Sequence record: PV935351.1
Reading direction: 5' to 3' (one strand)
DNA: 39,767 nucleotides
From: a phage
In this document: positions 235-39,767 of the stretch, in pieces
Numbering within the stretch: the first letter of the stretch is position 1
Layout of the letters: each line of letters starts with the position of its first letter
The notes under the pieces: generated by a model
Databases searched by the model: none
Told to the model about the DNA's origin: nothing
The model's input: only the letters and a program-made list of their open reading frames with translations
Translations under genes and position numbers: made by a program

Positions 235-325
235 TCCTACACCTACAGTCTCACTAACCTACAGTCTCACTAACCTACAGTCTCAACCATAAGACACCAA
301 CACCTACAGTCAGAGACCTACGGTT
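235..325. repeat. short direct-repeat array just inside left DTR
   Basis: CCTACAGTCTCACTAA in three tandem copies (242-289, 16-bp period, third copy degenerate), plus CCTACAGTC at 303-311 and CCTACGGTT at 317-325. Confidence 0.8.
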
Positions 326-8460: not shown

Positions 8461-8615
8461 CTGACGTAGAAAAGAAATACATCGTGGAGCTTGAGGGTCG
8501 CGTTCAGTCATTCGATGTTCCGGTGTACGCAAAGTCTCTTGAAGAGGCTACCCTGAAGTCCCAAGAGTATGAGGACGCGGGGTTTGTGGTCGGACGGATT
8601 CGTCCTGAGACCTAA
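8457..8615 (+). CDS. 2: gp2-like inhibitor of host RNA polymerase
   Basis: 52 aa [31 protein letters not shown]...[11 protein letters not shown]; resembles recalled T7 gp2; GGAAGGAG RBS. Confidence 0.75.
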
Positions 8616-8633
8616 ACTATCACTGTAGGACAG
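8611..8633 (+). promoter_or_regulatory. phage RNAP promoter (variant, G at -3)
   Basis: CCTAAACTATCACTGTAGGAC; overlaps the gene 2 stop; precedes the SSB gene. Confidence 0.6.
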
Positions 8634-36099: not shown

Positions 36100-36297
36100 A
36101 TGATTGAGTTAGACTTCAAGAATGAGGTCCTTAAAGCCTCTCCTATCGTCGGGACCGCTGCGGCTGATGGTGCCAGTCGGTTCTTCTTCGGACTTACGCT
36201 GAACGAATGGTTCTACGTTGCAGCTATCGCGTACACCGTTGTCCAGATTGGTGTGCTAGTCTACAAAACGATTAAAGGAGGCGGTGGTAAAACATGA
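36100..36297 (+). CDS. 17.5: holin
   Basis: 65 aa; FFFGLTLNEWFYVAAIAYTVVQIG nearly identical to recalled T7 gp17.5. Confidence 0.93.
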   Translation: MIELDFKNEVLKASPIVGTAAADGASRFFFGLTLNEWFYVAAIAYTVVQIGVLVYKTIKGGGGKT

Positions 36298-36557
36298 CGC
36301 AGATGGACTTAGAGAAGTTCCTCTTAATGCTAGATACTGAACGTGCTCGACTCATGCTGCAAGACCTGCGGGATGACACTAAGCGTTCACCTCAGCTCTA
36401 CAACGCCATTGAGAAGCTGCTTGCTCGTCACAACTTTGTGTTAAGCAAGGTGTCTGTTGACGAGAAGACGCTCGCTGATATGGAGGCCCTTAACGCAGAG
36501 TACGATAAGGTGCTCTCCGCTACGGAAGATAATGACACCGGGTATGGTGTTCAATAA
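36294..36557 (+). CDS. 18: terminase small subunit
   Basis: 87 aa; size and position of T7 gp18. Confidence 0.85.
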   Translation: MTQMDLEKFLLMLDTERARLMLQDLRDDTKRSPQLYNAIEKLLARHNFVLSKVSVDEKTLADMEALNAEYDKVLSATEDNDTGYGVQ

Positions 36558-36658: not shown

Positions 36659-37108
36659 ATGCTCGAATTTTTAAAGAGAGCGGCTCCGTGGTTACTTGCA
36701 GCAGTGATGTTTGCTGGTGGCTACCACACCGCTAACAATAAGTGGGAGGCTAAGGTCAATGCAGAATACACCTCGAATCTTAAGGCATCGGAAGATACAA
36801 GGCTTGCTGTCCAAGCTGAAGTCAACAAAGTGTCCAAACGGTTTCAGGACGAAATGTCCTCGCTGGAAGGCAGCACTGATAGGATTATTGCTGACCTTAA
36901 GTCTGACAATAAGCGGCTGCTCATCCGAGTCAAACCTACGAGTGGAACCACGCAAAGTGACGGTCGATGCTTCATTGATGGTTACGCCGAACTTGACGAA
37001 CGAGATGCTAAACGTCTTATCACCATCGGAGTGAAAGGAGACAAGTGGATTAAGGCCCTTCAAGACACTGTGATAGCCTTACAGCAAGAGAAGGAGGTGA
37101 CGCATTGA
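36659..37108 (+). CDS. 18.5: i-spanin (Rz-like)
   Basis: 149 aa; N-terminal TM helix ([14 protein letters not shown]), coiled-coil periplasmic region. Confidence 0.9.
36759..37034 (+). CDS. 18.7: o-spanin (Rz1-like lipoprotein) embedded in the +1 frame of gene 18.5
   Basis: About 91 aa; lipobox LTISGC; PRWKAALIG...SGC..SES...VDASLMV.PNLT.EMLNV matches recalled T7 gp18.7. Confidence 0.85.
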   Translation: MQNTPRILRHRKIQGLLSKLKSTKCPNGFRTKCPRWKAALIGLLLTLSLTISGCSSESNLRVEPRKVTVDASLMVTPNLTNEMLNVLSPSE

Positions 37109-38868
37109 GTAAAGACTTAGTGGCGCGTCAGGCGCTAATGACTACCCGTATGAAGGCAGACTTCGTGTTCTTCCTGTTCGTCCTGTGGAAAGCTCTTAGC
37201 CTACCAGTACCAACCAGATGCCAGATAGATATGGCCCGCAAGCTATCGGCTGGGGACAACAGGCGTTTCATCCTACAGGCGTTCCGTGGTATCGGGAAGT
37301 CCTTCATTACGTGTGCATTCGTAGTCTGGAAACTATGGAACAACCCAGACTTGAAGTTCATGATTGTGTCGGCCTCAAAGGAACGAGCCGATGCGAACTC
37401 CATCTTCATCAAGCGAATCATCGACCTCATGCCTCAGCTTCGGGAACTCAAACCTAAGCAGGGGCAGCGAGATGCGGTTATCAGCTTCGACGTTGGACCA
37501 GCCAAGCCAGACCACTCACCTTCGGTTAAGTCCGTTGGTATCACTGGTCAGTTGACTGGTAGTCGTGCTGACCTCCTGATTGCCGATGACGTGGAGGTTC
37601 CAAACAACTCGGCGACTCAGGCTGCACGAGACCGTCTGTCAGAGCTTGTAAAAGAGTTCGACGCTATCCTGAAGCCGGGAGGTACAATCATCTATCTGGG
37701 TACTCCTCAGAACGAGATGACCTTATATCGTGAGCTGGAAGGCCGTGGATACACCACTACCATCTGGCCCGCTCGCTACCCACGCGATAAGAAGGACTGG
37801 CAGTCTTACGGCGACCGTCTGGCACCGATGCTTCAGGCAGAGCTTGAAGAGGACCCTGAGTCCTTCTACTGGCGTCCGACAGATGAAGTACGATTCGATG
37901 ATACGGACCTGAAGGAACGTGAGCTGTCCTATGGTAAAGCTGGCTTCGCTCTACAGTTCATGCTTAACCCGAACCTGAGTGATGCTGAGAAGTACCCTCT
38001 GAAGCTCCGTGACCTTATCGTAGCCGACTTGGACCCAGCGTCTAGCCCAATGGTATACCAATGGCTTCCTAACCCTCAGAACAAGCGTGAGGACGTTCCT
38101 AACGTTGGACTCATGGGTGACTCATACCACACGTATCAGACTGTAGGTTCTGCCTTCAGTTCGTACACCCAGAAGATTCTGGTCATTGACCCTAGTGGTC
38201 GTGGTAAGGATGAAACTGGCTATGCGGTACTATATCAGCTCAACGGCTACATCTTCGCTATGGAAGTTGGAGGTATGCGTGGTGGTTATGAGGACTCTAC
38301 GCTGGAAGCCTTGGCTAAGATTGGTCGTAAGTGGAAGGTCAACGAATACGTCATTGAGGGTAACTTCGGTGATGGTATGTACCTTGAGCTATTCAAGCCT
38401 GTAGCTGCCCGTATCCATCCTGCGGCTGTAACTGAAGTGAAGAGTAAGGGTCAGAAAGAACTCCGCATCTGTGACGTTCTGGAGCCTATCATGGGGTCTC
38501 ACCGACTTATCGTCAACGCTGCTGCTATCGTCCAAGACTACCAGACAGCCTCTGACAAGGATGGTGTGCGTAACCCTATCTACTCTCTCTTCTACCAGAT
38601 GACCCGTATCTCTCGTGAACGTGGAGCCTTGGCACACGATGACCGACTTGATGCGCTGGCTATCGGTGTACAGTTCTTCGTTGAGTCTATGGCTAAGGAT
38701 GCCAACAAAGGCGAACGTGAAGTCACTGAGGAGTGGCTGGAGGAACAGATGGAGAATCCACGGAAAGGCTTCGAGTCCATCCACACTGAGTTCTGGGACA
38801 ATGGGGTCCGGGTAACTCACGATACGGACGACGAGCTGGGACTAGGGTCCTACGTTACGTTCCACTAG
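37105..38868 (+). CDS. 19: terminase large subunit
   Basis: 587 aa from TTG 37105 (AAGGAGG RBS); [82 protein letters not shown] match recalled T7 gp19. Confidence 0.97.
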
Positions 38869-38962: not shown

Positions 38963-38985
38963 ACTTAACTATCACTATAGGGAAG
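38963..38985 (+). promoter_or_regulatory. phage RNAP promoter near the right end (phiOR-like)
   Basis: CTTAACTATCACTATAGGGAAG, +1 G at 38980. Confidence 0.8.
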
Positions 38986-39165
38986 ACCCCCGGTTACTTA
39001 TAGTATTACTGTAGTGAATATACATATGCAGACTTTATGCAAGACCTTAGGAGGCAGACTCCGAGTTCTTACCTAAGGCTTGCACCGATGGAAGGAGGGT
39101 GATATTAATCATAATCCCTCCAATACAGATAGTCACCGACCATAGATACAGGAGGTATGTAGCAT

Positions 39166-39324
39166 ATGGCAAAGACCAAAGCTGTACTTAAAGCTCTGGC
39201 GACCAATCGAGCTACATACAGGTTTCTTGCTGCTGTTCTACTTGCTGCTGGCGTTACTGCTGGAAGTCAGTGGGTCGGGTGGGTCGAGACTCTCGTATGT
39301 TCTCTGGTGTCTCAGTGTAATTAA
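39166..39324 (+). CDS. 19.5: gp19.5-like small membrane protein
   Basis: 52 aa; TYRFLAAVLLAAG...SLVSQCN resembles recalled T7 gp19.5; AGGAGG RBS. Confidence 0.7.
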   Translation: MAKTKAVLKALATNRATYRFLAAVLLAAGVTAGSQWVGWVETLVCSLVSQCN

Positions 39325-39357
39325 CGCAATCATGGTAACGATTCATGAGCGGAAGAC

Positions 39358-39399
39358 CTAAGGTCAGTACGTGGATACAGACCCACTCTACTGACCTTA
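39358..39399 (+). other. 12-bp perfect inverted repeat near the right end
   Basis: CTAAGGTCAGTA (39358-39369) / TACTGACCTTAG (39388-39399), 18-nt spacer; about 165 bp left of the right DTR. Confidence 0.6.
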
Positions 39400-39486
39400 G
39401 CTACTGTAGTCAAGGACTTTAGGTAACACCTTAAGAGAAGCTCACTTAGGGTCATCCTACTTATTGGTCTATCCTAGTGTCGCCTG

Positions 39487-39526
39487 ACCTACGGTCCTTG
39501 ACCTACAGTGGCTGAGGCCTACAGTA
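39487..39526. repeat. short repeat array just inside right DTR
   Basis: ACCTACGGTC (39487-39496), ACCTACAGTG (39501-39510), CCTACAGTA (39518-39526); same motif and orientation as the left-end array. Confidence 0.75.
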
Positions 39527-39563
39527 GTGACGATGAGTTTTGGACCAAAAGTTTGAGACCACA

Positions 39564-39767
39564 TCTCACAGTTCAAGAACCTCAAGTCTCCCCCCCTAGG
39601 CCCTCTTTCAGTCCAGACCAAAGGCCCTACCCATTACTGCTCCTTGCAGTCACAGCCAGTCTATCATAAGGTTGGACCGATGGTCAAGACGTTAGGTCGA
39701 CGATAGGTCTAGGCTATGGCTTAGGGAAGGACGATAGGTAGAGGCTATAGGTCTTCTTTGAGTCTCT
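39564..39767. repeat. right direct terminal repeat (DTR)
   Basis: Identical to bases 1-204. Confidence 0.95.

Follow-up and report, generated by a model that had tools for sequence, protein, structure and literature searches.

Paired short-repeat arrays beside the terminal repeats of a K1F-type Kayfunavirus and their possible role at the concatemer junction

Organization of the genome ends

The window (the whole stretch of DNA analysed, 39,767 bp) is a complete, correctly oriented T7-like genome of a K1F-type Kayfunavirus. Its first kilobase is 83–96% identical to many Kayfunavirus genomes, the top match being Escherichia phage Zappy (96%), and T7-type genes for the small and large terminase subunits are present together with an exact 204-bp direct repeat at the two ends. 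This terminal repeat (TR) begins TCTCACAGT, as do the TRs of T7 and K1F. Coding sequence extends from the start of the ocr-like gene 0.3 at 795 to the end of gene 19.5 at 39324. The genome carries about a dozen copies of the phage's own promoter, CCTAAACTATCACTATAGGGA. The features on which the analysis turns, all on the + strand, are these:

1–204, +: left TR, identical over its entire 204 bp to 39564–39767
205–211, +: ATCTGTA, the counterpart of the class II pause signal, directly after the TR
236–325, +: left array (pattern search, repeat finding and direct reading)
236–242, +: half copy CCTACAC of the left array, overlapping the first full unit
241–250, 257–266, 273–282 and 302–311, +: left-array units ACCTACAGTC
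286–295, +: degenerate left-array unit ACCATAAGAC, which maintains the register of about 15 bp and occupies the sole double-length gap
316–325, +: left-array unit ACCTACGGTT
36294–36557, +: gene 18, small terminase subunit (Pfam PF11123 DNA_Packaging_2, E = 3e-12)
37105–38868, +: gene 19, large terminase subunit, the nuclease/ATPase responsible for cutting at the TR boundaries
38963–38983, +: last promoter for the phage RNA polymerase, phiOR-like (2 mismatches to the consensus)
39358–39400, +: hairpin with a perfect 12-bp stem, CTAAGGTCAGTA / TACTGACCTTAG, and a 19-nt loop (inverted-repeat search)
39401–39424, +: inverted near-copies of the array motif, able to pair with the right array (inverted-repeat search)
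39487–39526, +: right array (pattern search and direct reading)
39487–39496, +: right-array unit R1, ACCTACGGTC
39501–39510, +: right-array unit R2, ACCTACAGTG
39517–39526, +: right-array unit R3, GCCTACAGTA
39529–39563, +: near-invariant 35-bp block GACGATGAGTTTTGGACCAAAAGTTTGAGACCACA, abutting the right TR
39564–39767, +: right TR, the same 204 bp as 1–204

In a head-to-tail concatemer the order at the junction is gene 19.5, hairpin, right array, 35-bp block, TR, ATCTGTA, left array.

The 10-bp motif ACCTACAGTC is arrayed just inside each TR in one shared orientation. Exact matches to CCTACRGT, located by pattern search and by direct reading, start at 242, 258, 274, 303 and 317 on the left and at 39488, 39502 and 39518 on the right, all on the + strand. 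The first-pass annotation had listed five to six copies of CCTAC(A/G)GT on the left, three of them tandem 16-bp units, and three copies on the right in the same orientation: the right-hand count is as described, the left-hand count corresponds to five exact copies plus the overlapping half copy, and the tandem units form a perfect repeat, which Tandem Repeats Finder reports as 2.8 copies of ACCTACAGTCTCACTA at 241–285 with 100% match. The distance from the TR to the first full left copy is 38 bp and that from the last right copy to the right TR is also 38 bp. The arrays sit within 40–120 bp of both TR boundaries, that is, beside the terminase cut sites, and since all coding sequence is confined to 795–39324 both are non-coding.

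The arrays are not a product of chance. Over the whole genome and both strands CCTACRGT occurs 19 times against 2.7 expected, and none of 100 dinucleotide shuffles reaches 19; in 400 genomes generated by a first-order Markov model the mean number of + strand matches is 1.2 and the maximum is 2 per 100 bp, compared with the 5 observed. The three tandem units represent a single duplication history, and the copies at 242, 303 and 317, together with all of the right copies, differ in flanking context. Beyond the motif itself, similarity between the left and right flanks does not rise above shuffled controls. Because the flanks are alike in the motif only, the arrays are not copies of one segment, and for the same reason the idea that they are relics of a duplication was discarded.

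CCTACRGT is also found within genes. Between 795 and 39324 the + strand carries eight matches against 2.8 in synonymous-codon shuffles (0 of 300 reach eight), and the full 10-mer occurs three times on the coding strand against 0.09. A genome-wide role for the motif was nevertheless rejected: within T7 the motif of its own arrays, CCTAAAG, shows no enrichment (6 against 4.4), T7 shares the excess of CCTACRGT although its arrays use another motif, and an unrelated control heptamer, CATCAAG, likewise exceeds the null in the window (17 against 6.9), which means that the synonymous-codon null is poorly calibrated. The interior excess is probably unrelated to the arrays. One interior minus-strand match, at 8622–8629, is the reverse complement of a variant phage promoter, CCTAAACTATCACTGTAGGAC, which lies at 8611–8631 and has G for A at −3. 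Two other repeats were observed in the genome: GACTCAAGGT(C) on the + strand at 2529, 5613, 12954, 21051 and 36564, in three cases within about 35 bp downstream of a phage promoter, and GAGACCAAAGGT, with three occurrences. Both may be shared transcript leaders or processing sites.

The arrays are embedded among other junction elements. ATCTGTA occupies the place taken in T7 by ATCTGTT (161–167, after a 160-bp TR) and in T3 by the same heptamer at 232, after a 231-bp TR; ATCTGTAT stands at this position in all Kayfunavirus junctions. At the T7 concatemer junction ATCTGTT is the class II pause signal, with termination 6–8 nt downstream (bioRxiv 10.1101/2021.01.11.426313). From sequence likeness pausing is predicted at ATCTGTA as well, its seventh base being A where T7 has T. 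On the other side of the TR, nearly every column of the 35-bp block is conserved in an alignment of 21 distinct sequences, and the block resembles ACCATAAAAATCTGAGTGACTA of T7 and ACCACAAAAATCTGAATGGGTA of T3 at the equivalent place. It contains a small palindrome, TTTTGG-A-CCAAAA.

The hairpin is centred about 185 bp left of the right TR, just past gene 19.5. Among 24 Kayfunavirus sequences its stem is invariant, with one inner pair changed from GC to AU, and the loop exists in two unrelated versions; the corresponding position in T7 and T3 is taken by an imperfect palindrome (in T7 at 39568–39608, about 190 bp left of the TR). As to the nature of the hairpin, a processing site, a terminator-like element and a site of DNA fold-back are all conceivable. 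Immediately beyond it, within 39401–39424, CTACTGTAG is the reverse complement of CTACAGTAG, and GACTTTAGGT is the reverse complement of a T7-type unit, ACCTAAAGTC. Further upstream, the phiOR-like promoter transcribes toward the right array, the TR and the pause site, and phiOR of T7 and T3 is annotated at the equivalent position; the promoter at 38963 is followed by a degenerate copy at 38997. From the left array to gene 0.3 (205–794) there is no promoter for the phage polymerase, the first one being at 2511.

Several promoter-like and repeated sequences were noted around the left end. At 195–223 a sigma-70 extended −10-like site (TTGAGT and TATAGT separated by 17 bp, the −10 hexamer being preceded by TG) spans the end of the TR and ATCTGTA and points into the left array; E. 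coli RNA polymerase has been reported to use the terminator at the T7 concatemer junction as a strong promoter of the extended −10 type (bioRxiv 10.64898/2026.02.12.705533). On the − strand a leftward sigma-70-like site (TTGACC, 18 bp, TAGACT, with TG) lies within the TR, at 95–124 and again at 39658–39687; T3 has its annotated leftward promoter, A0, at this place. A family of GACGATAGGTC-type units occupies 125–191 of the TR, including an 11-bp tandem at 125–146, and a fourth related copy at 438–462 shares bases with the first strong early promoter-like site (TTGACT at 436). Rfam covariance models gave no match at gathering score anywhere in the window, and a tRNA scan of it found nothing.

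Conservation of the arrays among relatives

The junction region (right end, one TR, left end) was compared among 24 Kayfunavirus genomes, four of them IMG/VR contigs, from phages of Escherichia, Salmonella, Enterobacter, Klebsiella, Cronobacter, and Dickeya or Pectobacterium. Since assembly has left the ends of most database genomes collapsed or permuted, TR length in the relatives is for the most part the distance from the conserved TR start to ATCTGT rather than a measured end. The first-pass annotation had suggested a motif search at equivalent positions in T7-like genomes, on the view that absent or displaced arrays in close relatives, together with a lack of any packaging phenotype, would speak against the proposed role; both arrays proved to be present, and positionally conserved, in all 24. 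Two to three copies lie within about 80 bp left of the TR and three to eight within about 200 bp right of it, and inverted copies are absent from the array regions of all 24 junctions. Neighboring copies are spaced 14–16 bp apart, or 29–32 bp across a degenerate unit.

An information profile built from 97 distinct instances defines the unit. Positions that formed no part of the search pattern carry high information (A at −1, T at +7 and, in left arrays, C at +8), while the spacers carry almost none: the unit is thus A-CCTACAG-T-C. The C at +8 is poorly kept on the right, where it is found in 10 of 29 instances. Conservation of a purifying kind therefore acts on the motif and leaves the spacers free, and the retention of the motif while spacers, spacing and copy number change argues for function.

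The two arrays differ in how they vary. On the right, the doublet formed by R1 and R2, GACCTACGGTC-CTT-GACCTACAGT, is invariant in 21 distinct Kayfunavirus sequences and keeps a constant distance from the TR, also where the phages have unrelated DNA upstream; R3 is variable and often lost in the same alignment. On the left, the number of tandem units is fluid, with six in Zappy compared to three here and a range of three to six among genomes that are 95–96% identical, and the distance from the pause element to the first copy ranges from 24 to 106 bp among the 24 genomes.

Equivalent arrays stand on both sides of the TR in T7 and T3, which bears out the T7 analogy drawn in the first-pass annotation. 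T7 carries CCTAAAG eight times at 175–338, just right of its 160-bp TR, and CCTAAGG or CCTAAAG four times at 39621–39706, immediately before the right TR. The layout is repeated in T3 with CCTAAAG and a second variant, CCTGTAG, each on both sides of the TR. The T7 arrays were reportedly named SRL and SRR by Dunn and Studier in 1983. To our knowledge no function has been assigned to them since the genome was sequenced, and the searchable literature yielded no accessible account that describes them or that tests, for such arrays in any T7-like phage, binding, deletion or need in packaging.

More distant T7-like contigs from IMG/VR, with terminases 66–72% identical to that of the present phage, carry CCTAATG or CATCAAG on both sides of a TR whose end is marked by ATCTGT. 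One of these contigs (L062) is a relative of Pseudomonas phage Phi-S1, another (L038) matches the annotated terminal repeat of an Aeromonas phage over 31 bp, and a sequence search with a third (L032) gave no match. The junction of L038 (5085–5700 of that contig) is a far more elaborate form of the common layout: before the TR CATCAAG recurs every 12 bp, and after it TGTTTATCAT recurs every 11 bp, in about ten copies interleaved with ATCTGT. When all were compared against all, heptamers repeated on the left side turned up on the right side solely within their own lineage group, and always in unchanged orientation. Sharing of the motif between left and right is thus specific to each lineage.

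A predicted role for the arrays and its alternatives

Two observations bear on what the arrays may do. The combination of a selected core, free spacers, a regular register, strict polarity and an expandable copy number is that expected of reiterated protein-binding sites, and the location of the arrays at the junction brings the maturation machinery under suspicion. The reader is likelier to be encoded by the phage than by the host, given that T7, T3 and K1F-type phages all grow on E. coli and that their motifs differ. We consider it about an even bet (a probability near 0.5) that the arrays are binding sites for a phage-encoded oligomer, most plausibly the gene 18 product (gp18) acting with the gene 19 product (gp19), which would organize the concatemer junction. 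A role in concatemer processing or packaging, as the first-pass annotation had proposed, is suggested by position and conservation.

What is known of T7 and T3 makes gp18 the candidate trans-acting reader. In these phages gp18 recognizes pacB in concatemers and gp19 cuts at pacC (PMC9860248); an RNA polymerase-lysozyme complex paused at the junction recruits both proteins, and packaging specificity has been traced to gp19 and to DNA within 5% of the termini (PMC3276506). The gp18 proteins of T3 and T7 are 93% identical and interchangeable (PMC3276506). The pair also shares CCTAAAG, and as the motif is common to both, yet cross-packaging is poor, CCTAAAG is not the main determinant of specificity between them. 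In the present genome gp18 shares 52% identity with T7 gp18 across 62 aligned residues, and the gene 19 product, which matches the T7 terminase RNaseH-like domain (Pfam PF22530, E = 6e-38), is 65% identical to T7 gp19: these values are compatible with co-divergence of arrays and terminase, though no proof of it.

If this reading is correct, each unit of about 10 bp (A-CCTACAG-T-C), set in a register of about 15 bp, would bind one subunit of the oligomer. The right doublet, with its fixed geometry, and the invariant 35-bp block would load terminase for the initiating cut, from which packaging would proceed right to left; the left array, variable in copy number and reached last by the motor, would position or slow the complex for the terminal cut on the far side of the TR. 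The left array would in this sense be comparable to cosQ of lambda and the right array to cosB. Some features sit less easily with binding by an oligomer. A register of 14–16 bp is a non-integral number of helical turns, and conservation of the right array might serve DNA or RNA structure, the array being one arm of an inverted repeat. The range of 24 to 106 bp between pause element and left array better fits a loose landing pad than a precise part of a machine, and plasmid-transduction work in T7 and T3 is said to place the essential pac sequences near the TR, with the arrays at most accessory.

The arrays might instead serve replication of the ends, as priming sites for the gp4 primase or, on the right, through fold-back priming across the TR; in the latter version the right array, its inverted partner and the hairpin would prime synthesis such that each cut genome gains its own TR. 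We think this unlikely. The recognition site of T7 primase has the core GTC, in the form (G/T)(G/T)GTC on the template strand, and left units do end in GTC, but the units of this genome read CAGTC, CGGTC, CAGTG and CAGTA, the units of T7 end in GT, GC or GA, the C required at +8 is the base that right arrays fail to keep, and recognition by primase would leave the conservation of ACCTA unexplained: the information profile puts conservation on the wrong bases, and identity as primase sites was rejected. As to fold-back, 39340–39563 folds well beyond shuffled controls (z = −3.4 as DNA, −4.7 as RNA), the conserved hairpin, some 185 bp left of the TR, occupies the place of the T7/T3 palindrome, and in 22–24 of 24 relatives pairing is possible between the right array and the inverted copies at 39401–39424, both arms being almost invariant. 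The left array, however, has neither such a fold (z = −0.39) nor an inverted partner, and the long-range stem shows no covariation in the 24 relatives, three single changes being uncompensated; the stem was for this reason not adopted, and it is retained here as a rival. A role in transcription, either as decoy or roadblock sites that strengthen the pause of the phage RNA polymerase at the junction or as parts of a promoter for the host polymerase at the leading end, appears less probable still. The left array starts 25–30 bp downstream of the class II-like pause element, the sigma-70-like site at 195–223 overlaps that element as reported for the T7 junction, and the tandem unit CCTACAGTCTCACTA matches 12 of 15 bases in the upstream half of the phage's own promoter, CCTAAACTATCACTA. 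Yet the promoter-like part, TCTCACTA, is spacer that is missing from most copies and from all of those on the right, the motifs of T7 and T3 are unlike the upstream promoter halves of those phages, the right array precedes the pause, and promoter-like matches near the arrays are not clearly above shuffled expectation. When the genome was scanned with the consensus (−17 to +3), no array position came within 6 mismatches; identity as pseudo-promoters was rejected, the likeness being confined to the spacer of the tandem units and to the upstream half, with TATAGGG lacking.

A function of their own could also be denied to the arrays, which would then be slippage-prone, microsatellite-like DNA or leftovers of shifts in the TR boundary, homogenized by recombination between ends. 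Rapid change by whole units, from three to six in genomes 95–96% identical, is what this would produce, and T7 and T3 carry their own heptamer within the TR too; against it, the core is retained where spacers have diverged, R1 and R2 are invariant in 21 distinct sequences from hosts as different as Escherichia, Cronobacter and Dickeya, the left and right flanks have only the motif in common, orientation is never inverted in 24 genomes, and independent lineages with different motifs share an identical layout. We judge absence of function to be about as improbable as a role in transcription. It is very improbable, finally, that a host DNA-bending protein binds the arrays and shapes the junction in the manner of IHF at lambda cosB: although lambda offers a precedent for reiterated sites beside a terminase cut site, T7, T3 and K1F-type phages have different motifs on their common host, E. 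coli, and the motif matches no host-factor consensus known to us.

To return to recognition by phage-encoded terminase, a stronger version is that the arrays are address labels particular to each lineage, in which a ring or filament of gp18 reads the units, in their register of about 15 bp, to either side of the junction and the motif has co-evolved with gp18 and gp19. We hold this version to be doubtful, if somewhat less so than the replication alternative. Were it true, T7-like phages in a mixed infection would be unable to process one another's concatemers. The initiating cut would then be set by the right doublet and the terminal cut made more or less efficient by the expandable left array, and exchange of the motif would re-programme packaging specificity.

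The comparison defines a 10-bp unit, a register of about 15 bp, an invariant right doublet fixed relative to the cut site and an expandable left array; that different lineages have different motifs, always common to both sides, makes the question of function experimentally concrete. If the arrays are sites for terminase or a maturation factor, they would offer handles with which to engineer packaging specificity in T7-like transducing particles and therapeutic phages, and would aid in placing genome ends in circularly permuted database records. Should they prove dispensable, an old loose end would be settled too.

Comparison with known systems

Iterons, as found at plasmid and phage origins, are similar in consisting of direct repeats with a core of about 10 bp, a regular spacing of about 15 bp and a variable copy number. 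The present arrays differ in being paired across the TR and in being without an adjacent initiator gene, an AT-rich unwinding element or a phage promoter of the T7-origin type.

A further likeness is to the packaging sites of other terminases. The lambda cos site consists of cosQ, cosN and cosB, with reiterated R sites that are bound by the small terminase subunit gpNu1. In lambda cos, as in pacL and pacR of SPP1, reiterated short elements flank the terminase cut site, and distinct elements serve initiation and termination. The likeness does not extend to homology of sequence or protein. Lambda R sites are moreover of mixed orientation, with an intervening IHF site, whereas the arrays here have a single orientation, and the two cuts here bracket a repeat of about 200 bp that needs to be duplicated.

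With pacB and pacC of T3 and T7 the arrays share a place at the concatemer junction, on the right-end side of the TR, in a region read by gp18 and gp19 (PMC9860248; PMC3276506). The left array, on the other hand, lies on the opposite side of the TR from pacB, and the 35-bp block at 39529–39563 appears a better candidate than the arrays for the core packaging or cleavage signal of the pacB/pacC kind.

It is the short-repeat arrays of T7 and T3 themselves that provide the closest comparison. In all three phages ATCTGT(T/A) directly adjoins the TR and leads into an array of a motif of about 7–10 bp. The motif recurs, without change of orientation, in a shorter array that comes after gene 19.5 and a palindrome and before the right TR, and it has the form CCT-NNN-G. 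The differences are of detail: CCTACAG or CCTACGG here as against CCTAAAG in T7 (5–6 of 7 bases in common), a register of about 15 bp rather than about 13 bp, a TR free of copies where those of T7 and T3 contain three, the lack, beyond the left array, of a phage promoter like the phiOL of T7 and T3, and A rather than T as the last base of the pause element. Exact identity of the heptamer is not needed for membership of the class, since T3 itself carries the second variant CCTGTAG. Arrays of this class were already known beside the TRs of T7 and T3, and what is new here is the variant of the motif. On the strength of sequence and layout, the arrays are the Kayfunavirus counterparts of the T7 and T3 arrays, and belong to a feature found across the T7 group.
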